A stretch of 64,000 nt of DNA from Blastocatellia bacterium (GTDB lineage: Bacteria; Acidobacteriota; Blastocatellia; UBA7656), in contig DASUNP010000110.1 of the NCBI GenBank assembly GCA_036277095.1, forward strand, positions 5,444-69,443. The letters run 5' to 3'. Position 1 is the first letter of the stretch, and each line of letters opens with the position of its first letter. A program made the translations under genes and the position numbers. Positions 5,415-54,244 of this stretch are shown here, one piece after another. Below the pieces are notes generated by a model. The model saw only the letters and a program-made list of their open reading frames with translations. It was not told the origin of the DNA and searched no databases.

Positions 5415-5555
5415 CAGGGGTCGGGGGTCAGGGGTCAGGGGTCAGGGAAGAGGTTATCTGAAATATCAAATTTGTATGGCGGATGATGCGCTTGCGCGCG
5501 CCGCGATTACAAATCCCTGATCCCTGGCCCCCGACCCCCGACCCCTGGAGAGATT
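5415..5555 (+). repeat. Type-A junction element: phased heptamer array (CAGGGGT)x5 - AT/GC core - (ATCCCTG/ACCCCCG/ACCCCTG)x5, forming a ~33-bp imperfect inverted repeat; G-quadruplex-capable G-run arm
   Basis: Read directly: caggggt|cgggggt|caggggt|caggggt|cagggaa ... atccctg|atccctg|gcccccg|acccccg|acccctg|gagagat|tATG. The 7-nt phase is kept across all 141 nt. The right arm contains the SD of the next gene. Confidence 0.8.
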
Positions 5556-7982: not shown

Positions 7983-10900
7983 TCGTCAGTGGTGATTTCT
8001 AAACCTAGTTGCCGGGCAATCTCTTTTACTTCCTTATTGCGCCTGCCGTAGCCCATGCGCTCGATCATCTCTTTGGCAATTTTCCAATGCTCGCGAGCTT
8101 TGTCCCGATTGCCCTGCGCCAGATGCAGCCGTGCATATTCCAGATGACAATTAGCGAGATGCAAACCCATCCCGCTACGTGTGGCTATGCGAAGCACTTC
8201 AGTTAGATCGCGCTCGGCCAGCCCGTAATCACCATTAACCCGATGCAACTCCGCGCGCGTCAGCAGCCCGCGCGGTAAATGATGCGTTGTGCCTGCTTGT
8301 CGCAGTCCGTCCACGGCGCGTTGCAAAAACTCCGCCGCCTGTGTGGTATCACCCCTGCCCGCCTGTTGCGCTCCTAGCAGCGATGCGCGCCCCATTGAGA
8401 GATTATCCAATGCGATTTCGAGCAGCCAGTTGTTGCGTCTGGCAATCTCAAGCGTGTAGGCAGCGCGTTCTTTCACATCCTGTATCTGGCCCTGATTGAG
8501 CAGCAGATCGCAGTACTGAAATCCCCTCAATGAATAGAGGAACCTGTGTGCAGGCTGCCCTTGCTTTTCCATCTCTTCGGCCTCACGAAAGGCAATGACA
8601 GCTTCCTCTGTATGCCCCGCCTGATACAACGCATCGGCGAAGGCTGCTCTACTGATCATTCGTGGAAACTCGTCACCGCTGCGATCCGCCAGATCCACGC
8701 TCTGCTGGGCGAAGACGAGCGCCTGCGGCAGGTCGCCAATAGTCACGTAGAGTTCGCTGAGGTTGAGGGCATTGATAGCAGCATTTTCCCAATTCTCGCT
8801 TGCGATCCGCGCTTCCAACCCTGCCTGCATCGGCTGTGCCGCTTCCTCCAATCGTCCCAACGCTCGCAAATTAAAGCCAGCTTCACTCAGCACAAACGCT
8901 CTATAAGCATCCGAGAATCCTGCTACGGGTTGTTCCCATAGTATTTCAAAGAAGCTGGACAGTGTCGCCAAATCAGCGCCAAATGCGCCGAGCTTATGAA
9001 TACTAAATGCTTCTCTCCCTCTCCGAATCCGCCGCGAAAAGACCTCACCCGATGCTTCCTGATGTCTGCCCGCTGCGCAGCCATGCAAGACGGCTGCGAA
9101 CAGAGGCGACATCTCTTCCACCGTGTCAGGAAATTCTTTCGTTGTGCGCTTGAGGTGTTCGTAGAGCCGATTGTTCGCTTCCCGCCATGCGTCAGGGCGC
9201 TCGCGTTTGAGTTGTTGTTTGAAATACTCGCGCACCAGCGGATGAGCGTCCAGTGTGTCAGGCTCATTAATCAATTCTGCGCCCAGCAGCTTGATTCGGC
9301 GCAGATTTGCCAATGCCTCTTGCCATTTCACTTTACTCACATCCTGCAGCGCTTCGGTCAGACCCAGAATAGCGGGGGCCGCGCGCAAGGCAGCGATGCT
9401 TGCTGCGTCGGCGGGACGATCAAACAGCCCCATCATACGCAGCACCGCAAGTTCTACGCCTTCGCCCAGCCACTTCTCATAGGCAGCAATCATCTTTTGT
9501 GCCTTGTCGCCGGGCTGCCTGACATCAAACAGATTCTCAATCTCTCTGCGCCGCCGGATGTCTCCGCGCAACACCACATCCAGATAACTGCCCAACAGGG
9601 TCAGCGAGAAAGCGTGTCCGTTGAACTCTATTGCTGCCTCTTCCAATTCCTCTTCATCACCTTTGACATTCAGCGCACGCAAAACCTGTGCGCCTGCTTG
9701 CGGCGACAACTGGTCGAGGTCATGTTGTATGACCGTACTGTTTTCAAATTCAACCAGATCGCTCACTCGTTCGCGCGTCGAGATTACACACAACCCCGGT
9801 TGATGCGCCGCCAACTCGCGCAAAAGCGCCTGCAACGCCGCATCCTTCAACAATCCTCCTTGCGCGCCCGGCGGATGTTGCAGCGGTTCGAGTCCGTCGA
9901 GAATCAGCAGCGTGCGAGTCTGTCGAATAAGCCGCGCAAGCCTCTCGCCTTTGTCCCACGGCGTGCCTTGCGTCGGGTCATTGTCGCCAAAGTCTCGTAG
10001 CGCAGCGTAAATAAATTCATCGGCAGATGTCGCTTGCTCGTTCGTGCCCTGAGAGTAAAACGACCAGCTATAGACGCGCTCCGCGCCGCGATAGTTGTCG
10101 CGGGCCATGCGTTGTTTCACCCAATGATTGACCAGCGCGGTTTTGCCTACGCCGCCCCAGGCGACGAAAGCAATGATGTTGGTATTCGGATTCGCCCACG
10201 AGTCGTCGAGGAGTTGCAATTCTGCGTCGCGGCCAAAAAGGTCAGGCCCGCTCGTCGGCAAACGTGATATGGAGATCATGTCAGGCTCTAGCGATGGAGG
10301 TTTTTGCGGTTGAGATTCGATTGCAGTGTCAGTAGATGACCTTGATTGCGGGCCTGCCAACAACCCCGATGCCACCATTTCAAGCACGAATTCGGCGGCA
10401 TTTTCAGAAGCGATCTTTTGTCTCTGTTTTTTGCGGACGCCTTTTTTCCCATCAGCCCAATCGCAGATTGCTTTAATGAGTATCCAATTGACTTTGCTTT
10501 TGCTTTGCTCGCAGGCGATGTACAACCCTCCGCCTTCCATCTCTCCGCCAATCGCTTCTTCCGATAAGGCCAGCAGTTCATCCCGATAATCAATATTGTC
10601 AATCAACTTCTGCCCTGAAAGCACTACCCCGAAATCTACACCTGCTTTCTTCCAGCGCAGCCGAATCGTCCGAAAACGATCAAGCAGCTTTTCTGAGCAG
10701 TGCGGCTTGTCTCCCCGTAGGATGATTTTAGTTGCGCCTGCTTCTGTCGTCGCTACACGCTGAAGTTCATAAGGTTGAAGCTGCAATGAGACGAGGACAT
10801 CGCCAATCTTCTGCTTCTTAGGATTCACGCCAAAGGCGATTCCAACCAGGATGACATCGGATGGTTGCACCTCATCTATGGCATCTTTAACCGTCAGCAG

Positions 10901-11125
10901 AGAGCCGCCCCTTGTGTCTGCGCCCATTTCAGACCTGACGGCGAAAACACGCACGCCGCCGATCTCCCCCAGGTCGAAATAGGTTTTATGCCTTCCTGGT
11001 AGTTCCTTGTAATCGCGGTTAGTCAGGGCTTTGGTCCGTTCAAGCAGAGACTCGGTTTCGACGTCTGTCACGGTGACGAGTAAAACATCGCATCTCGATC
11101 TGAGTTCAGTGCCGGGCTTTTCCAT
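7973..11125 (-). CDS. STAND NTPase with N-terminal PNP_UDP/MTA-nucleosidase-like domain, NB-ARC ATPase and C-terminal TPR repeats (NLR-like, candidate defence/signalling protein)
   Basis: ORF-track frame 7973..11269. N-terminal region (RCDVLLVTVTDVETE ... GADTRGGSLLTVKDAIDEVQPSDVILVGIAFGV ... GGEMEGGGLYIACE) resembles purine/MTA nucleosidase motifs; compare the EME-x-A motif of MtnN. Walker A AWGGVGKTALV. Walker B TLLILDGLE. Sensor-1-like CVISTRE. GLPL-like GHAFSLTLLG. MHD-like DAHPLVREY. The C-terminal ~400 aa is helical-repeat/TPR-like. Start set at MEKPGT (11125), just before the first beta-strand of the nucleosidase fold. The upstream in-frame ATG at 11269 would add 48 low-complexity R-rich residues and lies inside a hairpin. 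Confidence 0.8.
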   Translation of the reverse strand: MEKPGTELRSRCDVLLVTVTDVETESLLERTKALTNRDYKELPGRHKTYFDLGEIGGVRVFAVRSEMGADTRGGSLLTVKDAIDEVQPSDVILVGIAFGVNPKKQKIGDVLVSLQLQPYELQRVATTEAGATKIILRGDKPHCSEKLLDRFRTIRLRWKKAGVDFGVVLSGQKLIDNIDYRDELLALSEEAIGGEMEGGGLYIACEQSKSKVNWILIKAICDWADGKKGVRKKQRQKIASENAAEFVLEMVASGLLAGPQSRSSTDTAIESQPQKPPSLEPDMISISRLPTSGPDLFGRDAELQLLDDSWANPNTNIIAFVAWGGVGKTALVNHWVKQRMARDNYRGAERVYSWSFYSQGTNEQATSADEFIYAALRDFGDNDPTQGTPWDKGERLARLIRQTRTLLILDGLEPLQHPPGAQGGLLKDAALQALLRELAAHQPGLCVISTRERVSDLVEFENSTVIQHDLDQLSPQAGAQVLRALNVKGDEEELEEAAIEFNGHAFSLTLLGSYLDVVLRGDIRRRREIENLFDVRQPGDKAQKMIAAYEKWLGEGVELAVLRMMGLFDRPADAASIAALRAAPAILGLTEALQDVSKVKWQEALANLRRIKLLGAELINEPDTLDAHPLVREYFKQQLKRERPDAWREANNRLYEHLKRTTKEFPDTVEEMSPLFAAVLHGCAAGRHQEASGEVFSRRIRRGREAFSIHKLGAFGADLATLSSFFEILWEQPVAGFSDAYRAFVLSEAGFNLRALGRLEEAAQPMQAGLEARIASENWENAAINALNLSELYVTIGDLPQALVFAQQSVDLADRSGDEFPRMISRAAFADALYQAGHTEEAVIAFREAEEMEKQGQPAHRFLYSLRGFQYCDLLLNQGQIQDVKERAAYTLEIARRNNWLLEIALDNLSMGRASLLGAQQAGRGDTTQAAEFLQRAVDGLRQAGTTHHLPRGLLTRAELHRVNGDYGLAERDLTEVLRIATRSGMGLHLANCHLEYARLHLAQGNRDKAREHWKIAKEMIERMGYGRRNKEVKEIARQLGLEITTDDHS

Positions 11126-11260
11126 CCTAAGCCTCACGCTATTGATCGAAAGTAATCTCAACCATACTAATCGAATTTCTCGAAGTGGCAAGGGCAAAGA
11201 ACGGCGGACGACAGAAGTCTTTATATTGGGAAACCATTTCCCAAAAGTGAACATCCGCCG

Positions 11261-11287
11261 GGCCGCCATTATTTGGCGGCCTTTTTC
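11261..11287 (+). terminator. Perfect 8-bp-stem palindrome GGCCGCCA-TTATT-TGGCGGCC followed by TTTTTCT (intrinsic-terminator-like on the + strand) in the divergent STAND/response-regulator intergenic region
   Basis: Read directly at 11261..11281 plus the T-tract. It overlaps the alternative upstream ATG (11269) of the STAND frame. Confidence 0.45.
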
Positions 11288-11344: not shown

Positions 11345-11388
11345 AATCATGCGAGGGTTAATTTCGGCAAGCAGTTTTGAGTTACATC

Positions 11389-12561
11389 ATGAGAAGTACT
11401 GATTCACCAATTGCGCGCGCCTTGATAGCCGACGATCAGCCCGATGTGATCGAAGCGCTAAGACTCTTGCTCAAAGGCGCGGGATACCAGACTAAAGCTG
11501 TGACTTCGCCGGCTGCCGTGCTCGAAGTTCTAAAGACTGATCGCTTCGACCTGCTTCTGATGGACCTGAATTACACACGCGATACGACGTCGGGCCGCGA
11601 AGGGCTTGATCTGCTTTCGCGAGTCCAGGCCCTCGACTCTACGCTCCCCATTGTCGTGATGACCGCCTGGGGCAGCATCGACCTGACGGTCGAAGCCATG
11701 AGGCGCGGCGTTCGCGATTTTATTCTGAAGCCGTGGGAGAACTCGCGGCTGCTCGACGTTCTGCGCGAGCAGATCGAATTCGGCGTCGCCGCCCGCCGTG
11801 AGCAATCCTTGAAAGCTCAAGCTGATGCTCGTACGCGCGAGCGCGACCGGCAGATCGAAGAGGCTCGCGAGATTCAACGCCGCCTGGTGCCGAAAGAGAT
11901 TCCGCAGGTTTGCGGCTGCAATATCTCGTTCGCGTGGCGCCCGGCAGAAGCAGTCAGCGGCGATTATTTCGACGTGCTCAAGTTCGACGATTCGCGCGTG
12001 GGCCTGGTCGTGGCTGACGTGTCGGGCAAAGGATTGCCTGCCGCTTTGCTGATGTCAAACGTGCAGGCCGCGGTAAAAGCTTTCGCTTCCGCAGACCCCA
12101 ATCCCGCAGAAGTCTGCACGAGGGTGAACCGTGTCGTGGCAAGCAACATCGCCGACGACAAGTTTATAACTCTGCTCTACTGCCTCGTGGATTGCCGCGC
12201 GCGGAGACTCTCGTACGCGAACGCCGGTCACAACGCGGGCGTCGTCGTTCGCAAATCGGGCGCGGTCGTCAGGCTGGAAAAAGGGGGCGCGGTCCTCGGG
12301 CCGTTTCCTGAATGCTGTTATGAACAGGGCGAGGTCGAGATAAGCCCGGGCGATAGGGTCCTTTTATTCACAGACGGAATTACCGAAGCGAGAAACGAAG
12401 CCGGGGAAGAGTTCGGCGAAGAGCGGTTGATAAGGTTGGCGGTCGACAGCCGCGCGCTCGACGCCTGCGATCTGCAAGCGGTTGTCACACGGGCAGTGAG
12501 TGATTACGCCCGCGATAGCTTCCACGATGATGCGACACTGGTCGTGCTTTCGGTCGATTAG
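11389..12561 (+). CDS. Response regulator with REC receiver domain and PP2C/SpoIIE-type serine phosphatase output (RsbU-like)
   Basis: REC domain: LIADDQPDVIEALRLLL ... DLLLMDLNY (phospho-acceptor Asp) ... IVVMTAWGS ... FILKPW. Coiled-coil linker. PP2C motifs GDYFDV, VADVSGKGLPAALLMS, LFTDGITEA. The ORF track begins at a TTG (11377); the first ATG is 11389. Confidence 0.85.
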   Translation: MRSTDSPIARALIADDQPDVIEALRLLLKGAGYQTKAVTSPAAVLEVLKTDRFDLLLMDLNYTRDTTSGREGLDLLSRVQALDSTLPIVVMTAWGSIDLTVEAMRRGVRDFILKPWENSRLLDVLREQIEFGVAARREQSLKAQADARTRERDRQIEEAREIQRRLVPKEIPQVCGCNISFAWRPAEAVSGDYFDVLKFDDSRVGLVVADVSGKGLPAALLMSNVQAAVKAFASADPNPAEVCTRVNRVVASNIADDKFITLLYCLVDCRARRLSYANAGHNAGVVVRKSGAVVRLEKGGAVLGPFPECCYEQGEVEISPGDRVLLFTDGITEARNEAGEEFGEERLIRLAVDSRALDACDLQAVVTRAVSDYARDSFHDDATLVVLSVD

Positions 12562-15027: not shown

Positions 15028-15069
15028 TTTCAAATTTGAGATTTGAGATTTGAGATTGAGAGGGAACCT
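15028..15069 (+). repeat. AT-rich heptamer junction (TTTCAAA then TTTGAGA x3), 42 nt = 6 heptamers, merging into the SD
   Basis: tttcaaa|tttgaga|tttgaga|tttgaga|ttgagag|ggaacct ATG. Confidence 0.8.
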
Positions 15070-17544: not shown

Positions 17545-17620
17545 CATCGTCATTCGTCATTTGTCATTTGTCCTTCGCATTCTCTTCAAAGGACGAATGA
17601 CTAAGGACAAAGGACAGATT
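17545..17620 (+). repeat. Type-B junction element: (TCATTCG/TCATTTG/TCATTTG/TCCTTCG) arm and complementary (GACGAAT/GACTAAG/GACAAAG/GACAGAT) arm forming a hairpin whose right arm supplies the SD
   Basis: catcg|tcattcg|tcatttg|tcatttg|tccttcg|cattctc|ttcaaag|gacgaat|gactaag|gacaaag|gacagat|tATG. Short remnants GACAAAGGACA(G/A)ATTATG also occur at 411-427 and 22628-22643. Confidence 0.75.
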
Positions 17621-20038
17621 ATGGACACGCTCATAAGAGATTTGCGATACGCGGTTCGTATGCTGGCAAAAAAGCCTGCCTTCACGGTCGTGGCGGTGCT
17701 GGCGCTGGCTTTGGGGATAGGAGCCAACACGGCGATCTTCAGCGTAGTCAATGCCGTGCTGCTGCGCCCGCTTCCCTATAGCGAGCCGGATCGGATCGTA
17801 AAGGTGTGGGAAGTCTTTCCGAACGTAAACCTCCGGGCCGATAAAGCGAGTGTCGCGCCCGCCAACTTCATCGACTGGGCTAATCAGAATCAGGTCTTTG
17901 AACAGATCGCAGCTTATAGCGGCGCGCGCGCGGGATTCAATTTCACAGAGGGCGGCCAGTCCGAACATATACAGGGCGCGCGCGTCTCGGCCAGCCTGTT
18001 CCCGCTCCTGGGCGTTCAGCCGATCCTGGGTCGCTTCTTCACAGAGGATGAGGACCGGCAGGGTAATCACCGGGTTATTGTCTTAAGCCAGGGGTTCTGG
18101 CAGCGCAGGTTTGGTTCAGACCACGACATCCTCGGCAGGACGCTCATTCTCAACCTCCGCAGCTACACTGTGATCGGGGTTATGCCTGCCTCCTTTGACG
18201 TGCCGCGCTCGGTCGACTTTTGGGTCCCGATGGCTTTCGACGCCGAAGAGGCGAAGACGCGCGATTTCCATTATCTCAGCGTGATAGCTCGCCTCAAGCC
18301 GAACGTCACGGTCGAGCAGGCGCGCGCCGAGATGATAGTGGTCGCTAGCCGCCTGGAACAGGAGCACCCGGTAACCAATGCCAATTACGGTGTGCAACTC
18401 AATCTGTTGCGCGAGCACCTGGTCGGCCCGGTTCGGCCCGCGCTGCTCACCCTGCTCGGCGCAGTCGGGCTGGTCCTGCTAATCGCCTGTGCAAACATAG
18501 CCAACCTATTGTTGGCCCGCGCGGCAGCCCGGCAAAAAGAGATCGCCATTCGTCAGGCTCTTGGCGCAAGCCGTCTCCGGCTGATTAAGCAGATGCTGAC
18601 AGAGAGCCTGCTTTTGTCTCTGCTGGGCGGCGTCATCGGCGCGATAATCGCTTTGTGGGGGACAGACCTTCTCGCCAGCCTTAGCCCGGAAAATATCTCG
18701 GGCCTCGGTCAAATCAAAAACGATGCTCGCGTGTTCGGCTTCACCCTGGCAATCTCGCTGCTGACGGGCGTCATCTTTGGCCTCGCGCCCGCCCTCCAAG
18801 CCACGAAGCCGCGTCTGAGCGAGATGCTCAAAGAAGGCGGACGCTCTGTGGGCGGCTCGGCCCGCAGCCGCACGCGGAGGCTGCTGGTCGTTTCGGAAGT
18901 GGCGTTGTCGCTCGTGCTGCTGGTAGGGGCGGGGTTGATGATAAAAAGTTTCATGCAACTTCAAAGCGTCGCCCCCGGATTCGATTCCAATAACCTGCTG
19001 ACGGTCAAGCTCTCCCCAACTATTTCCAAGTTTCGCAACCAGGGTGAAGGCATCGCTTTCTACCAGAAGGTCATCAATCAAGTCGAGTCGCTGCCCGGTG
19101 TCGTTTCGGCAGCCGCGGTCACTCACCTTCCTCTCAGCAATGATAACCTGAGCCTCACGTTCACAATCGATGGGCGGCCTGCGCCGGCTCCAGGTGAAGT
19201 GCTTTCCGCCGAGGCTCGCGCAATCAGCCCCAATTATTTTCAGACCATGTCGATCCCCTTTTTAAGCGGACGTGATTTTACGGATCGAGATAATGCTCAA
19301 GCCGCGCCCGCGATCATAATCAACGCAAAGATGGCCGACACGTTCTGGCCCGGCGAGGACCCTGTGGGTAAGCGCCTGTTTATGGACAACGAAAAGACTT
19401 CGCGCGAGATCGTGGGCGTTGTGGGGGATGTGAAGCATTGGGGGCTTGAGGAAGAATCGAGACCCGAGATGTACTGGCCGCTTTATCAAAACCCTGTCGT
19501 ATTCATGTCAGTCGTGATTCGCTCGACTTCGGATGCCGCCGGTCTGGCTGCCGCCGTGAGAAGCGAAGTCGAAGCGATCGACAAAGATCAGCCCGTCTAC
19601 AACACCAGGACCATGGAGCAGTTGCTTTCCCGCTCCGTGGCTACTCGGCGCTTTACCGTGCTCTTACTCGCCGTCTTCGCAGCTGTGGCACTGGTCCTGG
19701 CAGGCGGCGGAATATACGGCGTCATATCTTATTCGGTCTCTCAGCGGACGCGCGAGATAGGTATTCGCATGGCGCTCGGCGCGAGGTCGCAAGACGTTCT
19801 CGAAATTGTAGTGGGCGAGGGGTTAAAGCTCGCCGCCGTTGGCGTGGCGATAGGGCTTGCCGGGTCGTTAGCGTTAACCCGCTTGCTGTCAAGCATGCTT
19901 TATGGTGTGAGCACGACCGACTCTCAAACTTTTATAGGCGTCTCGCTGCTGCTTACGTTTGTGTCTTTGCTTGCGAGCTACATCCCCGCGCGCCGCGCAA
20001 CGAGAGTCGATCCGTTAGTCGCGCTCAGGTACGAATGA
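17621..20038 (+). CDS. ADOP-type duplicated permease
   Basis: MDTLIRDLRYAVRMLAKKPAFT ... [31 protein letters not shown] ... [16 protein letters not shown] ... VDPLVALRYE. ATG at 17621 preceded by AAGGACA. ORF-track start 17510 lies inside the previous gene and junction. Confidence 0.9.
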   Translation: MDTLIRDLRYAVRMLAKKPAFTVVAVLALALGIGANTAIFSVVNAVLLRPLPYSEPDRIVKVWEVFPNVNLRADKASVAPANFIDWANQNQVFEQIAAYSGARAGFNFTEGGQSEHIQGARVSASLFPLLGVQPILGRFFTEDEDRQGNHRVIVLSQGFWQRRFGSDHDILGRTLILNLRSYTVIGVMPASFDVPRSVDFWVPMAFDAEEAKTRDFHYLSVIARLKPNVTVEQARAEMIVVASRLEQEHPVTNANYGVQLNLLREHLVGPVRPALLTLLGAVGLVLLIACANIANLLLARAAARQKEIAIRQALGASRLRLIKQMLTESLLLSLLGGVIGAIIALWGTDLLASLSPENISGLGQIKNDARVFGFTLAISLLTGVIFGLAPALQATKPRLSEMLKEGGRSVGGSARSRTRRLLVVSEVALSLVLLVGAGLMIKSFMQLQSVAPGFDSNNLLTVKLSPTISKFRNQGEGIAFYQKVINQVESLPGVVSAAAVTHLPLSNDNLSLTFTIDGRPAPAPGEVLSAEARAISPNYFQTMSIPFLSGRDFTDRDNAQAAPAIIINAKMADTFWPGEDPVGKRLFMDNEKTSREIVGVVGDVKHWGLEEESRPEMYWPLYQNPVVFMSVVIRSTSDAAGLAAAVRSEVEAIDKDQPVYNTRTMEQLLSRSVATRRFTVLLLAVFAAVALVLAGGGIYGVISYSVSQRTREIGIRMALGARSQDVLEIVVGEGLKLAAVGVAIGLAGSLALTRLLSSMLYGVSTTDSQTFIGVSLLLTFVSLLASYIPARRATRVDPLVALRYE

Positions 20039-20170
20039 CAGGGATCAGGGGTCAGGGGTCGGGGGTCAGGGTTTTGTAATTTCAATGGCGGATGATGCGC
20101 TTATGCGCGCCGCGATTTCAAATCCTTACCCCTGACCCCTGGCCCCCGACCCTCGACCCCTGGAGGGATT
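20039..20170 (+). repeat. Type-A junction element (second copy)
   Basis: cagggat|caggggt|caggggt|cgggggt|cagggtt ... tccttac|ccctgac|ccctggc|ccccgac|cctcgac|ccctgga|gggattATG. Shares the central block atggcggatgatgcgctt..gcgcgcgccgcgatt with the 5415 copy. Confidence 0.8.
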
Positions 20171-22627
20171 ATGAATACGCTCTTGAGAGATTTGCGATAC
20201 GCGGTTCGTATGCTGGCAAAGAGGCCTGCCTTCACGGTCGTGGCTGTGCTGGCGCTGGCTTTGGGGATAGGAGCCAACACGGCGATCTTCAGCGTAGTCA
20301 ATGCCGTGCTGCTGCGCCCTATGCCGTACGAGAACCCGGACCAGCTAATTATGCTCTGGGAGACTAACCCGAGGCTTCAGCTCGGGTTCGATGAGGTTTC
20401 AGTCGCGCCCGCTAACTATGTCGACTGGAAAAACCAGAATAGCGTGTTCGAACAGCTCGCGGCTTTCTGGCCCAGCACCTATAACATCACCGATGCAGGC
20501 CAGCCCGAAAGGCTCGAAGGCGTAGAAGTCTCGTCAGATCTATTCTCCTTGCTGGGCGTTCAGGCGGCTCGCGGTCGGACTTTTTCCAAAGGTGAGGATG
20601 AGCTGGGTAATCACCGTGTCGTCGTCGTAAGCCACGGCCTCTGGCAGCGGCGCTTCGCATCAGACCCCGAACTCATAAATAGAACGATCAAGCTTAACGG
20701 CGAAGAGTTCACCGTCGTCGGCGTCATGCCCGAAGGCTTCCAGTTCCCGCGCAGGACCGAGCTGCCCGCACAGTATCGGTTCTTCCCCCCTCAGCCGGAG
20801 CTATGGACCCCGCTTGCCTTCACTCCCGCCCGCATACAGAATCGCGGCACTCACAACATTGCCGTCATGGGCAGGCTTAAATCGGGTGTCACGATAGATC
20901 AAGCGCGAGCCGAAATGAGTTCTATCGCAAGCCACCTCGCGGAGCAGTATCCCAGGACTAATCGCGGCTTCGACGTGCTGCTCACGCCCTTGCACGATCA
21001 GGCCGTGGGGCGCGTGAAACCTGCGCTCCTGATTCTGTTCTCTGCCGTCGGGCTTGTATTGATGATCGCCTGCGCGAACGTCGCGAATCTTCTGCTCGCG
21101 CGCGCGGCGACCAGAAAGAAAGAAGTCGCTATACGCACGGCCCTCGGAGCGGGACGGCGGCGGCTCGTCCGGCAGTTCTTGACCGAAAGCGTGTTGCTCG
21201 CTTTTGTAAGCGGAATACTCGGTTTGCTGCTGGCTCTGTGGGGCATAGATATTCTTTTGGCGCTCGCGCCCGAAAACCTCCCGCGCCTGCACGAGGTAAG
21301 CCTGGACATTTATGTGCTCGGCTTTACCCTGCTGGTTTCGCTCGTCGTGGGGGTGGCCTTCGGACTGGCTCCGGCCTATCAGGCTTCAAAGCCCGACCTC
21401 ACCGAAGCGCTCAAAGAAGGAGCGAGGGGCTCGGCCGTAAGCATCGTCCGCAACCGCACCCGCAGCCTTCTGGTGGTTGCTGAGATTGCGCTGTCGCTTG
21501 TGTTGCTCGTTGGCGCGGGGCTGTTGATAAAGAGCTTCATCAAGCTCCAGCAGGTCGATCCCGGTTTCAATCCCGAGCGGGTCTTTACGATCGACATAGC
21601 GCTGCCTGACGCGACTTATCCTGAAGCCGATCGCCAGCTAGCCTTCTTCGATCAAGCCCTCGATAAAATCGCTGCTTTGCCCGGCGTCGAGTCTGCGGCC
21701 ATCAGCACGAGCATACCCTTCAGCGGGTCAGAAAACAGCACCAGCTTTTCCGTCGAGGGGAGCCCGCCCGCCGATCAGATCCCCCAGGCCGATTACGCGA
21801 TGATAGGGCCGGGATTCTTCAACACGATGGGCATCCCCTTCGTGCGCGGGCGCGATTTTACAGAGCGCGATAACAGAGAGGCCCCGCAGGTTGTTATCGT
21901 TAGCAAGAGCCTGGCCGAGCAATTCTTCCCGGGCGCGGACGCAATCGGGAAACGGTTAAATATTTCGCTTAGCTCTGAGGGGCCGAGGCCGAGTGAGATC
22001 GTCGGGATAGTCGGAGACGTGAAGTATTCTGCGTTGAACGCCGAGCAAATACCTGCGCTCTACCTGCCGCACAAACAATTCCCCGGCGGCTTTGTATACG
22101 TGGTCGTGCGTTCTGCTTCCGACCCGTCGAGCCTCGCCGCTAGCGTTCGCGGCGAAGTCTGGACAATCGATAAAAACTTGCCGGTCTCTTCCTTACAGAC
22201 GATGGAGCAATTAATCGCCACTTCGGTCGCGTCACAGCGATTCAACATGCTGCTGCTTGTAATATTCGCAGCCGTGGCGCTGGTCCTGGCGGCCGTCGGA
22301 ATCTACGGCGTGATGAGTTATTCAGTCACACAACGCACTCACGAGATAGGCATACGCATGGCTCTAGGCGCGCAGGCCGTAGACGTGTTGGCGCTGGTTG
22401 TGAGGCAAGGGATGGGGCTCGCATTCGCGGGCGTCGGCGTGGGACTCTGCGCGGCGTTTGTTTTGACGCGGTTCATGCAGAGCTTGCTTTTCGGAGTAGC
22501 TGCCACAGACGCAGCTACATTTATTCTCATCTCGTTGCTGCTGACCGCGGTGGCCATAATGGCGAGTTATTTCCCCGCGCGCCGTGCAACGAGAGTCGAT
22601 CCGTTAGTCGCGCTCAGGTACGAATGA
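20171..22627 (+). CDS. ADOP-type duplicated permease
   Basis: 818 aa. MNTLLRDLRYAVRMLAKRPAFT ... [31 protein letters not shown] ... [16 protein letters not shown] ... VDPLVALRYE. SD GGAGGG upstream. The first ~150 nt are ~94% identical to the 5-prime end of the 17621 paralog. Confidence 0.9.
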   Translation: MNTLLRDLRYAVRMLAKRPAFTVVAVLALALGIGANTAIFSVVNAVLLRPMPYENPDQLIMLWETNPRLQLGFDEVSVAPANYVDWKNQNSVFEQLAAFWPSTYNITDAGQPERLEGVEVSSDLFSLLGVQAARGRTFSKGEDELGNHRVVVVSHGLWQRRFASDPELINRTIKLNGEEFTVVGVMPEGFQFPRRTELPAQYRFFPPQPELWTPLAFTPARIQNRGTHNIAVMGRLKSGVTIDQARAEMSSIASHLAEQYPRTNRGFDVLLTPLHDQAVGRVKPALLILFSAVGLVLMIACANVANLLLARAATRKKEVAIRTALGAGRRRLVRQFLTESVLLAFVSGILGLLLALWGIDILLALAPENLPRLHEVSLDIYVLGFTLLVSLVVGVAFGLAPAYQASKPDLTEALKEGARGSAVSIVRNRTRSLLVVAEIALSLVLLVGAGLLIKSFIKLQQVDPGFNPERVFTIDIALPDATYPEADRQLAFFDQALDKIAALPGVESAAISTSIPFSGSENSTSFSVEGSPPADQIPQADYAMIGPGFFNTMGIPFVRGRDFTERDNREAPQVVIVSKSLAEQFFPGADAIGKRLNISLSSEGPRPSEIVGIVGDVKYSALNAEQIPALYLPHKQFPGGFVYVVVRSASDPSSLAASVRGEVWTIDKNLPVSSLQTMEQLIATSVASQRFNMLLLVIFAAVALVLAAVGIYGVMSYSVTQRTHEIGIRMALGAQAVDVLALVVRQGMGLAFAGVGVGLCAAFVLTRFMQSLLFGVAATDAATFILISLLLTAVAIMASYFPARRATRVDPLVALRYE

Positions 22628-22640
22628 CAAAGGACAAATT

Positions 22641-25061
22641 ATGGATACGCTCTTGAGAGATTTGCGATACGCGATTCGTATGCTGGCAAAAAGGCCGGGC
22701 TTTACTGTCATTGCCGTGCTGACGCTCGCAATAGGGATAGGCGCGACGACGGCCATCTTCAGCGTAGTCAATGCCGTGCTGCTGCGCCCGCTCGATTACA
22801 AAGAGCCGGACCGGTTGCTGACGGTCTGGGAGAATCACGAGGCGCGCGAGGGGCCGAAGAATGAATGGACTTCGCCTCCTAATTTCGGCGACTGGAGAGA
22901 TCAGAATAATGTCCTTGAGGGCCTGGCCGCGCTGCAAGGTTGGGGGCCGACGCTCACGGGCGGGGCCGAGCCTGAGATGTTGAACGGCGCTGCTGTCTCT
23001 CACGACATGTTTCAGGTCTTGGGCGTCGAGCCTGCAATGGGGCGCAGCTTCCGTGCAGAAGAAGACCGCGCGGGCGCCGAGCGCGTCGTCATACTCGGCC
23101 ACGGGGTATGGAAACGAAGGTTCGGCGGCGATGAAGCTATACTCACTCGACCCATCACGCTAAACGGCGAAGCCTACACGGTCGTGGGCGTAATGCCCGA
23201 AGGGTTTCGCTTCCCCATCATCTCAAACGCCGAAGCATTCGTGCCGTTGATGCAGATCGTAAACAGCACCTGCGACCGGGGCTGCTACACGCTGAGGACA
23301 ATCGGCAGGCTCAAACAGGGAATCACGGTCGAACAGGCGCGCGCAGACATGGGCGCGCTCGCCGCAGGGCTTGCGGAGAAGCACCCTGATGTAAACATAG
23401 ATGTGGGGATCACGCTCGTCCCGTTGCACGAGCAGGTCGTAGGCTCCGTTAAGCCCATGCTGCTCGTGCTGCTGGGAGCCGTAGGCTTTGTATTGCTGAT
23501 CGCCTGCGCGAACGTGGCGAATCTGATGCTTGCGCGCGCGGCCACGCGGGCCAAAGAGATAGCCATTCGGACGGCGCTCGGCGCGAGCCGCGCCCGGCTG
23601 ATCCGCCAGCTTTTGACTGAGAGCTTGATACTTTCTTTGATTGCAGGCGCGCTCGGTTTGCTGCTCGCGTTCTGGCTCGTCGACGTGATGATTGCTTTCA
23701 GCCCCACAGGCACTCCGCGCATCGACGAAGTAGCGATAGACAAAACCGTGCTCGTCTTCACGCTCATAGTCGCCGTAGCCACGGGTCTTATCTTCGGACT
23801 CGTCCCGGCGCTTGAAACCACCAGGCCCGACTTCGGCCAGTCGCTCAAAGAGGGCAAGGGGACGGACGCGGCTTCGGGCGGGAAGGCAGTCCGCAACACG
23901 CTTGTCGTGGTGGAAGTCGCGCTCGCCTTGATGTTGCTGATAGGAGCGGGGCTCTTGATAAAGAGCTTTGCAAAGCTCTTGAACGTCGACCCGGGTTTCA
24001 ACCCTTCAAACGTGTTGACGCTCCAGCTCAACTTGCCGCGCACGAGATACCCCGAAGGCCAGCACGTCGCGGCCTTTTACGCGGACCTCATCGGTCGCGT
24101 AAAGAATTTGCCCGGGGTCGAATCGGTCGCCGCCGCTTCGTCGCTGCCGCTCGGCGGGCCGAACACGGACGCCAGCTTCTTTGTAGAAGGCCGCCCCGCC
24201 CCATCGCCCGGAGAGGAGCCCGCAGCGTGGTACTCGCTTGTGACTGCCGATTACTTCCGAACGATGGGCATGCGTATGGTGAGCGGCCGCGCGTTCGACG
24301 AGCGAGACCATACAAAATCTCCTCAGGTGATCGTCATCAACGAGACTATGGCCCGCCGCTACTGGCCGGGCGAAGACCCTGTCGGCAAGCGTGTGATAAC
24401 GGGCAGCATAAACAACCCGAACCGGCGCGAGGTCGTCGGCGTGATCGCGGACGTGAAGCATTTCGGTATAGACGCAGACGCGCGACCGACTATGTATTTC
24501 TCTCACGCGCAGATCCCTGCGCGACTGATGACCCTCACGGTGCGCACGAATGCTGAGCCGACCTCGCTTGCCACGGCCGTCCGCAGCCAGGTCTCGGACA
24601 TAGATAAAGAGTTGGCCGTTTCAAACATCAGCAGCATGCAAGAGCGGGTTGCGACCTCGATCGCGCCCTCAAGGCTGATTATGCTGTTGCTCGGTCTATT
24701 CGCCGGGCTGGCCCTTTTGCTTGCGGCCGTCGGCATCTACAGCGTCATCGCCTACGGCGTCACACAGCGCACGCGCGAGATAGGCATTCGCATGGCTTTA
24801 GGCGCGCAGGCCGTAGACGTGCTCAAGCTCATCGTGGGGCAGGGAATGACGCTCGCGCTCATAGGAGTGGCGATCGGGCTAGGGCTGGCCGTAGCGCTCA
24901 CCAGATTCATGCAGGGCTTGCTTTATGAAGTAGACGCCTTCGACCCCGTGACGTTCGCGGCGATCTCGCTGCTGCTTGTAGGCGTCGCGTTGCTTGCTTG
25001 CTACATCCCTGCGCGGCGCGCGGCAAAAGTCGACCCGATGGTCGCGCTCAGATACGAATGA
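22641..25061 (+). CDS. ADOP-type duplicated permease
   Basis: 806 aa. MDTLLRDLRYAIRMLAKRPGFT ... [31 protein letters not shown] ... [16 protein letters not shown] ... [17 protein letters not shown] upstream. Confidence 0.9.
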   Translation: MDTLLRDLRYAIRMLAKRPGFTVIAVLTLAIGIGATTAIFSVVNAVLLRPLDYKEPDRLLTVWENHEAREGPKNEWTSPPNFGDWRDQNNVLEGLAALQGWGPTLTGGAEPEMLNGAAVSHDMFQVLGVEPAMGRSFRAEEDRAGAERVVILGHGVWKRRFGGDEAILTRPITLNGEAYTVVGVMPEGFRFPIISNAEAFVPLMQIVNSTCDRGCYTLRTIGRLKQGITVEQARADMGALAAGLAEKHPDVNIDVGITLVPLHEQVVGSVKPMLLVLLGAVGFVLLIACANVANLMLARAATRAKEIAIRTALGASRARLIRQLLTESLILSLIAGALGLLLAFWLVDVMIAFSPTGTPRIDEVAIDKTVLVFTLIVAVATGLIFGLVPALETTRPDFGQSLKEGKGTDAASGGKAVRNTLVVVEVALALMLLIGAGLLIKSFAKLLNVDPGFNPSNVLTLQLNLPRTRYPEGQHVAAFYADLIGRVKNLPGVESVAAASSLPLGGPNTDASFFVEGRPAPSPGEEPAAWYSLVTADYFRTMGMRMVSGRAFDERDHTKSPQVIVINETMARRYWPGEDPVGKRVITGSINNPNRREVVGVIADVKHFGIDADARPTMYFSHAQIPARLMTLTVRTNAEPTSLATAVRSQVSDIDKELAVSNISSMQERVATSIAPSRLIMLLLGLFAGLALLLAAVGIYSVIAYGVTQRTREIGIRMALGAQAVDVLKLIVGQGMTLALIGVAIGLGLAVALTRFMQGLLYEVDAFDPVTFAAISLLLVGVALLACYIPARRAAKVDPMVALRYE

Positions 25062-25171
25062 CAGGGATCAGGGGTCAGGGGTCAGGGTTTTGTAATTTCA
25101 AATTTCAGATTTGAGATTTCAAATCCTTACCCTTGACCCCTGGCCCCCGACCCCCGACCCCTGGAGGGATT
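25062..25171 (+). repeat. Type-A junction element (third copy; AT-rich heptamer core instead of the GC-rich central block)
   Basis: cagggat|caggggt|caggggt|cagggtt|ttgtaat|ttcaaat|ttcagat|ttgagat|ttcaaat|ccttacc|cttgacc|cctggcc|cccgacc|cccgacc|cctggag|ggattATG. Confidence 0.8.
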
Positions 25172-27607
25172 ATGAATACGCTCTTGAGAGATTTGCGATA
25201 CGCGGTTCGTATGCTGGCAAAAAGGCCGGGCTTTACTGTCATTGCCGTGCTGACGCTCGCAATAGGGATAGGCGCGACGACGGCCATCTTCAGCGTAGTC
25301 AATGCGGTGCTGCTTCGCCCCCTGCCGTACAAGGAGCCGGATCGCCTGGTCCAGTTCTGGGAGACGAATCCGCTTAAAGGCTGGACTGAGAATGTGGTCG
25401 CGCCCGCCAACTACCTCGACTGGCAAAGCCGCAGTGAGTCGTTCGAGTTGATGTCTGCTTACTTCGGCTCACAGACCAGGGATGTCGGCGTGTCTAACTT
25501 CTATCTCACGGGCGACGGCGAGCCTGAGCGGCTACAGGGGCTGGGCGTGACGGGCGAATTCTTCTCCGTCTTAGGCGTTGAGCCTTTGCACGGGCGAGGA
25601 TTCCGACCCGAAGAGTCATGGTCGGGCAACGATGTGGTCGTCTTGAGCCACGGTTTGTGGCAGCGCCGGTTCGGGGGCGACCCGAACATAGTGGGCCAGA
25701 CCATCTCGCTCAACGGCCGCGCGCAGACCGTGGTAGGCATCATGCCCGAATCGTTCTATTTCCCGACTAAAGATATAGAGCTGTGGTCGCCGCTTGGGAT
25801 GACGCGCGAGCAGATGATGCAGTTGCGCAGGCCGCACTTTCTGCGTGCAATCGCGCGGCTAAAGCCGGGCGTCTCGCTTGAGCAGGCGCAGGCGGAGATG
25901 ACCAGAATCGCAAGCGACCTGGAACAGCAATACCCGGACACCAACACGCAGATGGGCGTGGGGCTGGGAACGCAGCAGGAATGGTACGTCGAAAAGACTC
26001 GCCCGATGCTGCTCATCTTTATTGCCGCCGTAGGCTTTGTATTGCTGATCGCATGTGTGAACGTGGCTAATCTGATGCTTGCGCGGGCAGCTACGAGGGC
26101 CAAAGAGATAGCCATTCGGACGGCGCTCGGCGCAACCCGTATGCGCATCGTCCGTCAACTGCTGACCGAAAGTTTGCTGCTCGCCGTCACAGGCGGCTCG
26201 CTCGGATTACTGCTCGCCGTGTGGGCGCGCGATTTGCTGCTGGCTTTCAGCCCCGGCAACATCTATCGCTTCGACGAGACCAGCCTCGACCTGCGCGCAA
26301 TCGGATTCACGTTCGGGGTCACGCTGTTGACCTCCTTGATGTTCGGCCTCTTCCCGGCGCTCAGAATATCAAAGCCTGATTTGACCGCGACGCTCAAGGA
26401 AGGCCAGAAGGGCGCGGGCGGATCACGCGGCGTCGGCCCGCTCAAGCTGCTGGTCGTCGCAGAGATCGCCCTGTCGCTCGTGCCGGTGATCGGCGCGGGA
26501 CTTTTGATAAAGAGTTTCTTACGACTTCAAGAGGTCGATCCGGGCGTAGACCCGAACAATGTCTTGACCTTCAAAGTCTCGCTGCCCGGCATTCGTTATA
26601 AAGAGGACGACCAATACGTGCGCTTCTTTCGCCAGCTCGATGAGCGCATCAGGGCGCTGCCCGGCGTCGAAGATGTCGGGGCGTCTACGGCCATAGCGTT
26701 TAAGACTTATAACTGGACGGGCGATTTGACGGTCGAAGGCCGAGACCCCGAACACTACTTCCGCGAGGTGCGCCACAAGGAGATCACTCCGAGCTATTTC
26801 CGCACGATGCGACTCCACCTGGAAGCCGGTCGAGAGTTCACCGAAGCGGACAACACGAACAGCCCCGCCGTCGTAGTAGTCAACCAGGCGCTGGCCGATC
26901 AGTATTTCCCCGGCGAAGAAGTGCTCGGACGCCGAGTCAAGTTCTCAAAGCCGACCATAGACGGCACCTGGCACACGATCGTGGGCATAGTAGAGGGCGA
27001 AAAGCAGGACGGCTTAGATGCGGCGATCAAGCCCGATATATATCAATCTTACTTGCAAAACCCTGTGCCGCAGATGACCTTCGTCGTGCGGACCTCTAAC
27101 GATCCCAACAGCCTTATCGGGGCCGTGCGCGGCGAGATACGCGCGCTCGATAAAGACCTGCCCGCTTTTGACATCGAGACTATGCAGCAGATCGTAACCG
27201 AGTCGCTCGCCCAGAAGCGTTTCACGATGTTGCTGCTCGCCATATTCGGCTCCGTCGCTCTGTTGCTCGCGGCAGTAGGCATCTACGGCGTGATGAGCTA
27301 TTCAGTCACGGAACGCACGCACGAGATAGGCGTGCGCATGGCGCTGGGCGCTGCAAAGCGTGACGTGCTCAAGCTCGTAGTAGGCCAGGCGGCAGTGCTG
27401 GCGATGATAGGCGTAGGCTGCGGGTTGGTCGCGTCATTTCTGTTGATGCGATTGATGGAGAGCCTGTTGTTCAAAGTCAGCACAACCGACCCGCCCACTT
27501 TCTTAATCGTCTCAGTAGTGCTGACCGCAGTCGCGCTCGTAGCGAGCTACTTGCCGGCGCGTCGCGCTACGAGAGTAGATCCGATGATCGCGCTCAGATA
27601 TGAATGA
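25172..27607 (+). CDS. ADOP-type duplicated permease
   Basis: MNTLLRDLRYAVRMLAKRPGFT ... LLIACVNVANLMLARAATRAKEIAIRTALGA ... [16 protein letters not shown] ... [13 protein letters not shown] 25172 preceded by GGAGGG. The first ~145 nt are nearly identical to the 22641 paralog. Confidence 0.9.
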   Translation: MNTLLRDLRYAVRMLAKRPGFTVIAVLTLAIGIGATTAIFSVVNAVLLRPLPYKEPDRLVQFWETNPLKGWTENVVAPANYLDWQSRSESFELMSAYFGSQTRDVGVSNFYLTGDGEPERLQGLGVTGEFFSVLGVEPLHGRGFRPEESWSGNDVVVLSHGLWQRRFGGDPNIVGQTISLNGRAQTVVGIMPESFYFPTKDIELWSPLGMTREQMMQLRRPHFLRAIARLKPGVSLEQAQAEMTRIASDLEQQYPDTNTQMGVGLGTQQEWYVEKTRPMLLIFIAAVGFVLLIACVNVANLMLARAATRAKEIAIRTALGATRMRIVRQLLTESLLLAVTGGSLGLLLAVWARDLLLAFSPGNIYRFDETSLDLRAIGFTFGVTLLTSLMFGLFPALRISKPDLTATLKEGQKGAGGSRGVGPLKLLVVAEIALSLVPVIGAGLLIKSFLRLQEVDPGVDPNNVLTFKVSLPGIRYKEDDQYVRFFRQLDERIRALPGVEDVGASTAIAFKTYNWTGDLTVEGRDPEHYFREVRHKEITPSYFRTMRLHLEAGREFTEADNTNSPAVVVVNQALADQYFPGEEVLGRRVKFSKPTIDGTWHTIVGIVEGEKQDGLDAAIKPDIYQSYLQNPVPQMTFVVRTSNDPNSLIGAVRGEIRALDKDLPAFDIETMQQIVTESLAQKRFTMLLLAIFGSVALLLAAVGIYGVMSYSVTERTHEIGVRMALGAAKRDVLKLVVGQAAVLAMIGVGCGLVASFLLMRLMESLLFKVSTTDPPTFLIVSVVLTAVALVASYLPARRATRVDPMIALRYE

Positions 27608-27648
27608 TTTCAAATATCAAATTTGAAATCTCAAATTGAGGGAAGCCG
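27608..27648 (+). repeat. AT-rich heptamer junction
   Basis: tttcaaa|tatcaaa|tttgaaa|tctcaaa|ttgaggg|aagccgATG. Confidence 0.7.
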
Positions 27649-30075: not shown

Positions 30076-30116
30076 CTCAAATCTCAAATTTGAAATTTCA
30101 AATTGAGGAGAAAGCG
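30076..30116 (+). repeat. AT-rich heptamer junction
   Basis: ctcaaa|tctcaaa|tttgaaa|tttcaaa|ttgagga|gaaagcgATG. Confidence 0.7.
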
Positions 30117-33699: not shown

Positions 33700-33760
33700 A
33701 AGTGCTGAGTCCTGAGTAATTGTTTTCCACTCAGCACTCAGCACTCAGGACTACAGAAAG
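33700..33760 (+). terminator. Hairpin after the repeat-protein gene (GTGCTGAGTCCTGAGT ... ACTCAGCACTCAGGAC)
   Basis: Inverted repeat read directly. No clear U-tract, so function as a terminator is uncertain. Confidence 0.4.
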
Positions 33761-33773
33761 GTTGAGCAACTTT

Positions 33774-41566: not shown

Positions 41567-41608
41567 TTTCAAATTTCAGATTTGAGATTTGAAATTGAAA
41601 GGAAGTAT
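41567..41608 (+). repeat. AT-rich heptamer junction, 42 nt
   Basis: tttcaaa|tttcaga|tttgaga|tttgaaa|ttgaaag|gaagtat ATG. Confidence 0.75.
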
Positions 41609-44038: not shown

Positions 44039-44157
44039 CAGGGATCAGGTGCCAGGAGCCGGGGGCCAGGGATTCGTAATTTCAAATCTCAAATTTGATA
44101 TTTCAAATCCTTCTTTCCCCTGAACCCTGACCCCCGATCCCCGACCCCTGGAGAAAG
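44039..44157 (+). repeat. Type-A junction element (fourth, degenerate copy; 119 nt = 17 heptamers)
   Basis: cagggat|caggtgc|caggagc|cgggggc|cagggat|tcgtaat|ttcaaat|ctcaaat|ttgatat|ttcaaat|ccttctt|tcccctg|aaccctg|acccccg|atccccg|acccctg|gagaaag|ATG. Confidence 0.75.
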
Positions 44158-48146: not shown

Positions 48147-48255
48147 TCACCGCCGCAGACACAGAGCACACAGAGTTTACGCAGAGCAGAATTATGTTCT
48201 CTCTATACGTTTTCTCTGCGCCCGCTCTGTGTTCTCTGCGTCTCTGCGGTGAATT
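48147..48255. repeat. REP/MITE-like dispersed hairpin repeat, copy 1 (CACCGCCGCAGACACAGAGCACACAGAG ... CTCTGTGTTCTCTGCGTCTCTGCGGTGAAT)
   Basis: Long imperfect inverted repeat immediately after the amidohydrolase stop. It shares a ~30-nt near-identical core (CTCTGTGTyCTCTGCGTCTCTGCGGTGAATyCT) with the copy at 63686..63771. Confidence 0.6.
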
Positions 48256-49179: not shown

Positions 49180-49278
49180 AGTCAGTTGTCAGTTGTCCGT
49201 TGTCCGCGGTCAGTCGTGGGAGCGGCCTTCGTAAGCGCGAGCAACTGACTGCGGACAACTGATTAAGGACAACTGAAT
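49180..49278 (+). repeat. Type-C junction hairpin built from (CAGTTGT) and complementary (ACAACTG) heptamers
   Basis: gtcagttgtcagttgtccgttgtccgcggtcagtcg ... gcaactgactgcggacaactgattaaggacaactga. Imperfect ~35-bp inverted repeat between the DUF4097-like gene and the next permease. Confidence 0.65.
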
Positions 49279-54174: not shown

Positions 54175-54244
54175 TATCGTCATTCGTCCTTTGTCATTTG
54201 TCCTTTGCAGGTAATGCAGAGAGTGCAAATGACAAAGGACAAAG
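54175..54244 (+). repeat. Type-B junction-like hairpin terminating the array (no permease gene follows)
   Basis: tatcg|tcattcg|tcctttg|tcatttg|tcctttg|caggtaa|tgcagag|agtgcaa|atgacaa|aggacaa|ag. Inverted repeat TTGTCATTTGTCCTTTGCA / TGCAAATGACAAAGGACAA. Confidence 0.7.

Follow-up and report, generated by a model that had tools for sequence, protein, structure and literature searches.

The tufA/tufB genes and the rRNA operons are examples of prokaryotic concerted evolution, and the babA/babB genes of Helicobacter pylori and the opa genes of Neisseria have conserved 5' and 3' ends around a variable middle and exchange sequence by gene conversion. In babA/babB and opa it is the variable middle that is swapped, with antigenic or adhesin consequences. 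Concerted evolution by recurrent gene conversion has also been described in 26 prokaryotic genes (PMC6053082). The present analysis concerns a stretch of 64,000 nucleotides from a Blastocatellia bacterium (positions 5,444 to 69,443 of contig DASUNP010000110.1, assembly GCA_036277095.1), which is referred to below as the window and which carries a tandem array of permease genes. These genes are of the acidobacterial duplicated orphan permease (ADOP) type, and a preliminary description of the window had pointed to blocks of near-identical nucleotide sequence at the 5' and 3' ends of otherwise diverged neighbours, with gene conversion, unequal crossing-over, or an element acting at the RNA level within the initial 150 coding nucleotides as candidate causes. 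A full-text literature search found no paper on gene conversion in the ADOP family and no study of the ADOP family itself.

The blocks most probably (at a probability of about 0.86) were produced by recurrent ectopic (interlocus) gene conversion in short tracts among the tandem ADOP paralogues, after the split from the nearest sequenced relatives. This is a known process rather than a novel one, and the array, from an uncharacterised family, adds a further example of it. As in the known cases of prokaryotic concerted evolution, paralogues were closer to each other than to their orthologues, silent sites were homogenised, and the pattern recurred in related lineages. However, only terminal and junction tracts of 35-135 nt in genes of 2.4 kb were affected here, the rest of the genes being at approximately 50% protein identity, and the array has 18 tandem copies, of which at least six take part, with tracts that reach the intergenic spacers. 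The architecture is also similar to that of babA/babB and opa, in that conserved ends flank a divergent exposed domain and serve as the substrate for homologous exchange; but the ADOP array shows homogenised ends only and has no host-immune context. No exchange of the periplasmic-domain region between ADOP paralogues was detected in the window.

The window contains 18 ADOP-type permease genes of 795-838 codons each, all on the same strand. All 18 copies were complete and had their own start codon and ribosome-binding site, and the pairwise protein identity across the paralogues was 38-55%. The five array genes that were submitted to NCBIfam all matched TIGR03434 over its full length (profile positions 1-803 of 803) with scores of 1017-1066 bits, the curated cutoff being 622 bits, and Pfam analysis of the array proteins revealed a duplicated MacB_PCD and FtsX architecture, in which each domain matched twice. 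No ABC_tran gene was found by Pfam among the open reading frames (ORFs) of the window inside the array; the sole ABC_tran gene (57907-58602, minus strand) is located 3.7 kb past the array and forms a pair with a single-copy FtsX permease gene of its own (58599-59849). The array genes therefore agree with the ADOP family (TIGR03434) in the full-length match, the duplicated MacB_PCD and FtsX domains, and the lack of an adjacent ATPase gene inside the array, and they show no departure from it at the protein-family level. Genes were named by the letter g and their true start coordinate, and the analysis focused on four adjacent genes on the plus strand, g17621 (17621-20038; TIGR03434, 1060 bits), g20171 (20171-22627; 1066 bits), g22641 (22641-25061; 1055 bits), and g25172 (25172-27607; 1025 bits), together with g425 and g27649. 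The start of g17621 was placed at 17621 by paralogue alignment; the longest ORF, which begins with the ATG at 17510, extends across the hairpin that precedes the gene.

Two related genomes provided syntenic orthologues, with 73-82% amino acid identity. The first, L001, is a 12-kb contig of a related Blastocatellia that was reached through a 76%-identical homologue from a protein search, and the second, L039, lies on a 3.25-Mb contig from a different Blastocatellia metagenome-assembled genome (MAG) that was reached by a 20-mer scan, the matches of which were mostly single, unrelated ADOP genes besides this syntenic locus. In L001, r1787 is the orthologue of g15070 (82% amino acid identity), r4302 of g20171 (76%), r6791 of g22641 (79%), and r11810 of g25172 (78%). 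L039 carries, in the order of the window, orthologues of g15070, g22641 (m1958; 77%), g25172 (m4426; 77%), and g27649 (m6907). The gene content varies among the three genomes: g17621 is present in the window only, with no orthologue in L001 or L039, the orthologue of g20171 is absent from L039, and r9342, an extra paralogue between the orthologues of g22641 and g25172, is found only in L001. Whole permease units are thus gained or lost at conserved junctions.

In an unbiased self-BLAST of the window, the 5' blocks were the top internal matches. Between 17621-17770 and 20171-20320, 8 of the 150 nt differed (positions 4, 6, 13, 15, 51, 53, 75, and 150), close to the nine or so differences noted in the preliminary description, and the homogenised block of g17621 (17621-17769, codons 1-50) shared a 74-nt exact run with g20171. 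The block of g22641 (22641-22789) differed from that of g25172 at 5 of 150 nt and shared a 100-nt exact run with it; over 22641-22785 and 25172-25316, where an identity of about 97% had been estimated, 4 of 145 nt differed (97.2% identity). A 54-nt block had been assigned to g425 and g25172 and denied to their neighbours. It was found exactly at 520-573 and 25267-25320, but the neighbour g22641 also carries it, at 22736-22789 with two mismatches, so that the second half of this claim is only partly right. The exact match in fact comprises 56 nt (nt 94-149 of g425, 518-573, plus strand, and 25265-25320 of g25172, approximately 24.7 kb away), with all 18 silent codons identical (permutation p = 0.003).

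Over the first 150 nt, g17621, g20171, g22641, and g25172 differed from one another at 5-25 positions, whereas the other 114 comparable pairs differed at 32-70 positions (median 52), and the longest exact runs were 36-100 nt among the four genes compared with a median of 11 nt and a maximum of 21 nt in the other pairs. The identity stopped at approximately nt 150, which is the end of the hydrophobic N-terminal segment and the start of the MacB-type periplasmic domain. From the MacB architecture, we infer that this segment is the first transmembrane segment (TM1), so that the block would cover the N-terminus and TM1; the Pfam MacB_PCD match starts at residue 22. Elsewhere, the protein identity between these paralogues was 50-55%, in agreement with the figure of about 50% given earlier.

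Silent sites were analysed as codon identity at positions of identical amino acids in the two genes, and the first 50 codons were compared with the gene body. In the pair g17621/g20171, 42 of 45 codons were identical in the 5' block, compared with a fraction of 0.41 in the body (Fisher p = 3.6e-12), and in the pair g22641/g25172, 43 of 46 codons were identical, compared with 0.47 in the body (Fisher p = 2.5e-10). Synonymous divergence equal to that of the rest of the genes, which the preliminary description had named as the outcome that would count against its claim, was not observed, since the silent identity was 0.93 in the 5' blocks and 0.41-0.47 in the rest of these pairs. Conversion was further assessed with a silent-site tract permutation test (1000 permutations) and with triplet breakpoint tests; the silent-tract scores were 40 and 36 for g17621/g20171 and g22641/g25172, respectively, against null maxima of 21 and 18. 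Together with the self-BLAST ranking, the numbers of differences, and the exact runs, this places the blocks outside what chance would give. When all 153 paralogue pairs were pooled, the silent identity was 0.459 in the 5' block and 0.448 in the body, indicating that the homogenisation is specific to certain pairs rather than family-wide. The silent identity expected from codon usage alone was 0.383 and the gene-body median was 0.446. The gene bodies are therefore near the codon-usage expectation, which indicates that the duplications are old.

The comparison with orthologues showed the same blocks from another side. Paralogue nucleotide identity was 0.9-1.0 over the first 48 codons or so and then approximately 0.57; orthologue nucleotide identity was even along the genes, at approximately 0.75-0.79. 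The first 150 nt of g25172 differed from its orthologues at 41 and 45 positions and from its paralogue g22641 at 5, and the two orthologues differed from each other at 14 of 150 positions. Similarly, the first 150 nt of g20171 differed at 29 positions from the orthologue r4302 and at 8 from the paralogue g17621. The unconverted controls g15070 and g27649 differed from their orthologues at 25-27 positions in the first 150 nt, and the block of g22641, with 23 and 28 differences of 150 to its own orthologues, was in the normal range. At informative sites, g25172 agreed with the paralogue at 40 and with the orthologue at 0, and g20171 agreed with the paralogue g17621 at 25 of 29 and with the orthologue r4302 at 4 of 29. 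The orthology of g25172 resumed at approximately codon 49, and over nt 150-165 the orthologues were the nearest neighbours.

The change is also visible in the encoded N-terminus. According to both outgroups, the ancestral N-terminus of g25172 was METFL(Q/H)DIRYGFRVLLSK, and in the window the gene has MNTLLRDLRYAVRMLAKR instead, as its neighbours do. All four window genes, but not one of the orthologues, have AGA (Arg) as codon 6, which must accordingly have spread after arising. The silent identity of the orthologue pairs was 0.55, 0.74, and 0.62 in the block and 0.54, 0.62, and 0.60 in the body. Gene conversion between array members, as proposed in the preliminary description, is thus supported both by the silent-site test and by blocks that resemble paralogues more than they resemble the orthologues from two related genomes.

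The nearest neighbour of the 5' block switched segment by segment. The block of g20171 (20171-20319, plus strand) is a mosaic of g25172-type sequence (nt 1-53) and g17621-type sequence (nt 57-149); g25172 was matched at all five informative sites as far as nt 53 and g17621 at all 18 from nt 57, which is a perfect partition (P = 5.9e-5). The block of g25172 (25172-25320, plus strand) was overwritten from three sides, nt 1-50 being equal to g20171, nt 51-134 to g22641, and nt 94-149 to g425, and its informative sites were of the g20171 type up to nt 34 and of the g22641 type over nt 51-114 (P = 0.01). The first of these segments is not confined to the coding sequence, as it extends from -57 to +50 with respect to the translation start site. 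An identity tract of 107 nt with two mismatches joins 20114-20220 to 25115-25221 (both plus strand), and each copy spans the right hairpin arm of the spacer and the ribosome-binding site and ends 50 nt into g20171 or g25172, respectively. In both relatives, the spacers at the orthologous junctions are short, AT-rich, and unrelated to these, and they have no hairpin arms. Identity across the boundary between coding and non-coding sequence, within a spacer that is not conserved, points to DNA copying rather than to selection on the product.

Junction sequence has thus been copied several times, in short overlapping tracts, between paralogues of ancient divergence; a junction here consists of the last 40-56 nt of a gene, the spacer and its hairpin arms, and the initial 150 nt or so of the following gene. 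The tract lengths were approximately 35-135 nt, and a single block of 150 nt can be a mosaic of two or three donors, as in g25172 (g20171 from -57 to +50, g22641 from +51 to +134, and g425 from +94 to +149). Judged against its two orthologues, g25172 is the clearest recipient of converted sequence and the only gene for which donor and recipient could be told apart, and the block of g22641 probably represents the lineage that donated much of the common sequence.

Homogenised tracts were also found at the 3' ends and inside the genes. The string that had been reported at the 3' ends of both the 17621 and the 20171 genes was present as 43 nt exactly at 19996-20038 and with one mismatch, in the first base, at 22585-22627. 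The corresponding blocks of g17621 (19983-20038) and g20171 (22572-22627), both on the plus strand, are identical over the last 42 nt and have one mismatch over the last 56 nt; 14 of 15 silent codons were identical (p = 5.5e-5), and the block of g20171 had an identity of 0.97 to the paralogue and of 0.75 to the orthologue. A derived TTA codon (Leu) is common to the 3' ends of g17621 and g20171, where r4302 and most paralogues have ATG. In the same manner, the last 51 nt of g25172 (27557-27607) and of g27649 (30025-30075), both on the plus strand, matched with one mismatch, all 13 silent codons were identical (p = 3.5e-5), and the block of g25172 had an identity of 0.97 to the paralogue and of 0.78 to the orthologue m4426.

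An internal conversion tract of 107 nt was located in a conserved transmembrane region of the first FtsX domain of g22641 (23478-23584) and g25172 (26027-26133), both on the plus strand. The two copies were 92.5% identical, with 26 of 34 silent codons identical compared with 0.44 in the body (p = 2.5e-4), and the tract of g25172 had an identity of 0.86-0.97 to g22641 compared with 0.75-0.83 to the orthologue. The detected tracts map to four segments that rank among the best conserved in the family alignment and in which the baseline nucleotide identity is highest. Apart from these, the pair g22641 (22641-25061) and g27649 (27649-30075) showed a body silent identity of 0.594, compared with the median of 0.446 (approximately 4.5 standard deviations above it), in patches of 11-19 consecutive identical codons at a protein identity of only 53%, which suggests multiple older or smaller conversions outside the gene ends.

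At the same junctions, the relatives show a homogenisation of their own, and the process is recurrent in the lineage. In L001, the pair r4302/r6791 had a silent identity of 0.74 in the 5' block compared with 0.45 in the body, and in L039, m1958 and m4426 were 0.94-0.97 identical over codons 24-47, with derived bases in common. No 5' homogenisation was found in the ADOP arrays L002, L004, and L005 of more distant Acidobacteriota, in which the first 150 nt of the genes differed at 33-69 positions, and it is therefore not a property of the family. In L005, another Blastocatellia genome, two adjacent ADOP genes shared their last 60 nt with four differences (7317-7499 and 9848-10000 including the spacers) as well as visibly similar (GGAGTCA)n hairpin spacers, and the 5' blocks were not shared. 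The common 3' end and spacer of this pair indicate that junction-centred homogenisation is not confined to the lineage of the window.

A dependence on homologous recombination can be inferred from the position of the tracts, which lie in the most conserved segments and end where homology falls off. Homology-dependent recombination or repair would be nucleated only in segments with enough nucleotide similarity and would be blocked by the divergent sequence of the periplasmic domain. The homogenised exact runs of 36-100 nt would in turn ease further exchange, which may make the process self-reinforcing among the four neighbours, and it is probably by way of this junction homology that whole genes have been gained and lost between the three genomes.

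Several points weigh against gene conversion in this form. Direction and non-reciprocity are beyond the reach of a single genome, and the donor of several segments is ambiguous. The block shared by g425 and g25172 is only suggestive when taken alone, its p value failing the correction for 153 pairs, and several weaker tracts likewise fail multiple-test correction on silent sites alone. As the source is a MAG, the identity may have been somewhat inflated by the assembly through bubble-popping inside real repeats. Finally, there are only two outgroup genomes, the closest at approximately 76-82% amino acid identity, so that the timing of the events is coarse.

The spacers between the ADOP genes consist of tandem repeats with a period of 7. 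Of the 64 tandem arrays detected with Tandem Repeats Finder in the six loci examined, 39 have this period, and the repeats often occur as inverted pairs that form long hairpins (RNA fold z of -4.7 to -11.5). In the window, spacers with period-7 repeats were found at 5415-5555, 15028-15069, 17545-17620, 20039-20170, 25062-25171, 27608-27648, 30076-30116, 33700-33773, 41567-41608, 44039-44160, 49181-49278, and 54175-54245; the spacers of the other genomes were located at 1694-1786 and 9215-9341 in L001, 4851-4977, 7378-7499, and 9909-10000 in L005, and 6883-7031 and 15054-15161 in L004. The heptamers of the window included CAGGGGT, TTGTCAT, TTTGAGA, CACTCAG, and GTCAGTT, those of the other genomes AAGGCAA, GGAGTCA, and TGCGGAT, and CGGCAAT was also among the units observed.

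Two hairpins of the type (CAGGGGT)n...(ACCCCTG)n, with shared arms, precede g20171 (20039-20170, plus strand; -78.8 kcal/mol, z = -6.3) and g25172 (25062-25171, plus strand; -59 kcal/mol, z = -5.7). The loop of the latter keeps the AT-rich sequence tttcaaatttcagatttgagatttcaaat, which makes up the whole spacer at the orthologous junctions (L039, 4382-4425 on the reverse strand; L001, 11766-11809), and the hairpin arms thus appear to wrap an ancestral AT-rich spacer. In the loops of 20039-20170 and 5415-5555, there is an additional nested GC-rich palindrome, atggcggatgatgcgctt..gcgcgccgcgatt. The hairpin upstream of g17621 (17545-17620, plus strand) is of the type (TCGTCAT/TTGTCAT)n...(AAGGACA)n (z = -4.7), and the 3' end of its right arm (..aaggacaaaggacagatt) is common to the 13-nt spacers before g425 and g22641 (caaaggacaRatt). 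The G-rich hairpin arms fit the G-quadruplex motif.

Over-represented intergenic heptamers have been described elsewhere, namely the GGGNATC repeats of Xanthomonas and Nostoc, which form G-quadruplexes, stand just after stop codons, and occur as convergent pairs (PMC4692102), and the TAACTGA repeats of Beggiatoaceae (PMC4679880). Both are similar to the period-7 arrays of the window, which have approximately four units between ORFs of the same strand and whose inverted pairs can form stem-loops, and the placement of the GGGNATC repeats is also similar, with the G-rich strand downstream of the stop codon and the C-rich strand ahead of the following start codon. However, these genomes have one dominant unit each, whereas many heptamers occur within the one array of the window. 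Orthologous junctions in the related genomes carry different spacers, which amounts to complete turnover, and this turnover together with the variety of heptamers in one array is unusual.

These spacers allow a further interpretation, in which the junctions, consisting of the C-terminal end, the heptamer hairpin spacer, and the N-terminal/TM1 start, are recombination hot spots of a cassette system that diversifies the periplasmic domains. The hairpins could form cruciforms or, with their G-rich arms, G-quadruplexes, and could stall replication or be cut. Damage at the hairpins would then be repaired from a neighbouring paralogue, with short tracts and the gain, loss, and reshuffling of permease units as the outcome. 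If this were true, the ADOP array would be a structured fast-turnover system and not a passive set of duplicates. We regard it as unlikely.

Recent unequal crossing-over or partial segmental duplication, which would produce chimeras with the 5' end of one paralogue on the body of another, is improbable as the source of the blocks. The genes are tandem with conserved ends, and the variation in gene content among the three genomes indicates that unequal exchange does occur. A chimera, however, needs a near-identical counterpart, and no gene body had more than 55% protein identity or approximately 0.6 nucleotide identity to another. The bodies of g20171, g22641, and g25172 also keep the orthologous order in the relatives, and two or three donors per 150 nt would need several crossovers at a constant copy number. 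The suggestion of unequal crossing-over in the preliminary description is therefore less likely as the direct cause of the blocks, and it may explain the differences in gene content.

An assembly artefact, in which paralogous 5' ends were collapsed or contig paths switched between paralogues or strains, has a very low probability. The sequence is a third-party MAG assembly, and exact repeats of 50-100 nt confuse short-read assemblers. However, an assembler cannot make identity from sequence that is approximately 70% identical, and the exact runs of the unconverted pairs were 21 nt or shorter. The order of the gene bodies agreed with two independent assemblies, the four copies carried copy-specific differences and distinct upstream spacers, and a similar pattern of paralogue-over-orthologue identity was observed in the 3.25-Mb MAG contig (m1958/m4426) and in L001 (r4302/r6791).

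The least probable of these explanations is a functional nucleotide or RNA element in the first 150 nt or so, such as a regulatory structure, a small RNA target, or a translation-initiation signal, that keeps silent sites under selection. The near-invariant silent sites in the block of the four genes would fit it, as would the inclusion of the translation-initiation region in the block and the strong hairpin directly upstream of two of the genes; but selection of this kind would not yield mosaic sharing with clean breakpoints, and neither the 153 pooled paralogue pairs (0.459 vs 0.448) nor the orthologue pairs (block 0.55-0.74, body 0.54-0.62) showed an excess of silent identity in the block, orthologues of the same gene differing at 23-45 of 150 nt. 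The minimum free energy folds of the four copies varied and did not exceed those of shuffled sequences in stability (z = -0.35, +0.85, +1.24, and +1.44). No Rfam match at the gathering threshold was obtained in the whole window, and the 35-nt core (nt 16-50) was absent, in an exact scan, from 185,579 species-representative genomes and 241 million metagenome records. The RNA-level element put forward in the preliminary description is thus supported neither by silent sites nor by folding nor by Rfam, and the nucleotide identity itself needs no assigned function.

Programmed cassette variation of the pilE/pilS type, or by a shufflon, a diversity-generating retroelement, or an integron-like system, was rejected, as all 18 copies are complete and no dedicated enzyme was found: the window ORFs submitted to Pfam contained no recombinase, integrase, or reverse-transcriptase domain, and no attC-like core sites were seen when the spacers were read by eye.

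Recurrent short-tract gene conversion thus explains the pattern without a new element and removes the false lead of an RNA signal inside the coding sequence. It leaves the functional picture of the ADOP proteins unchanged. The large ADOP arrays of soil Acidobacteriota are shown to be dynamic, with junctions that are repeatedly overwritten and genes that come and go between related genomes. Phylogenies and orthology calls of ADOP genes should drop the first 150 nt or so and the last 60 nt or so, and anyone assembling or binning such genomes from short reads should beware of the exact 50-100 nt repeats at the gene junctions.

Several other features of the window were recorded. The array is interrupted by a gene on the minus strand (7973-11269) for a protein of 1098 amino acids with an N-terminus of the PNP_UDP_1 type (phosphorylase superfamily), a NACHT/NB-ARC NTPase domain, and C-terminal TPR repeats; this is an architecture of the signal transduction ATPases with numerous domains (STAND) type, a kind often linked to defence or signalling. 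It is followed by a gene (11377-12561) whose product combines a response regulator with a SpoIIE phosphatase domain. A gene for a putative endonuclease of the Uma2 family (54245-54853, minus strand) is located at the end of the ADOP array, and a second Uma2 gene (9508-9807) was found inside the ADOP array of L004, an unrelated Blastocatellia MAG; this may be a coincidence. A sequence of 41 nt occurs at 48214-48254 and at 63729-63769, in both cases in non-ADOP intergenic regions 15 kb apart, with 92.7% identity, and small repeats of period 8 or 9 (TCTCTGCG, CGCAGAGA, and TCCTCTGCG) lie at or beside the two copies.

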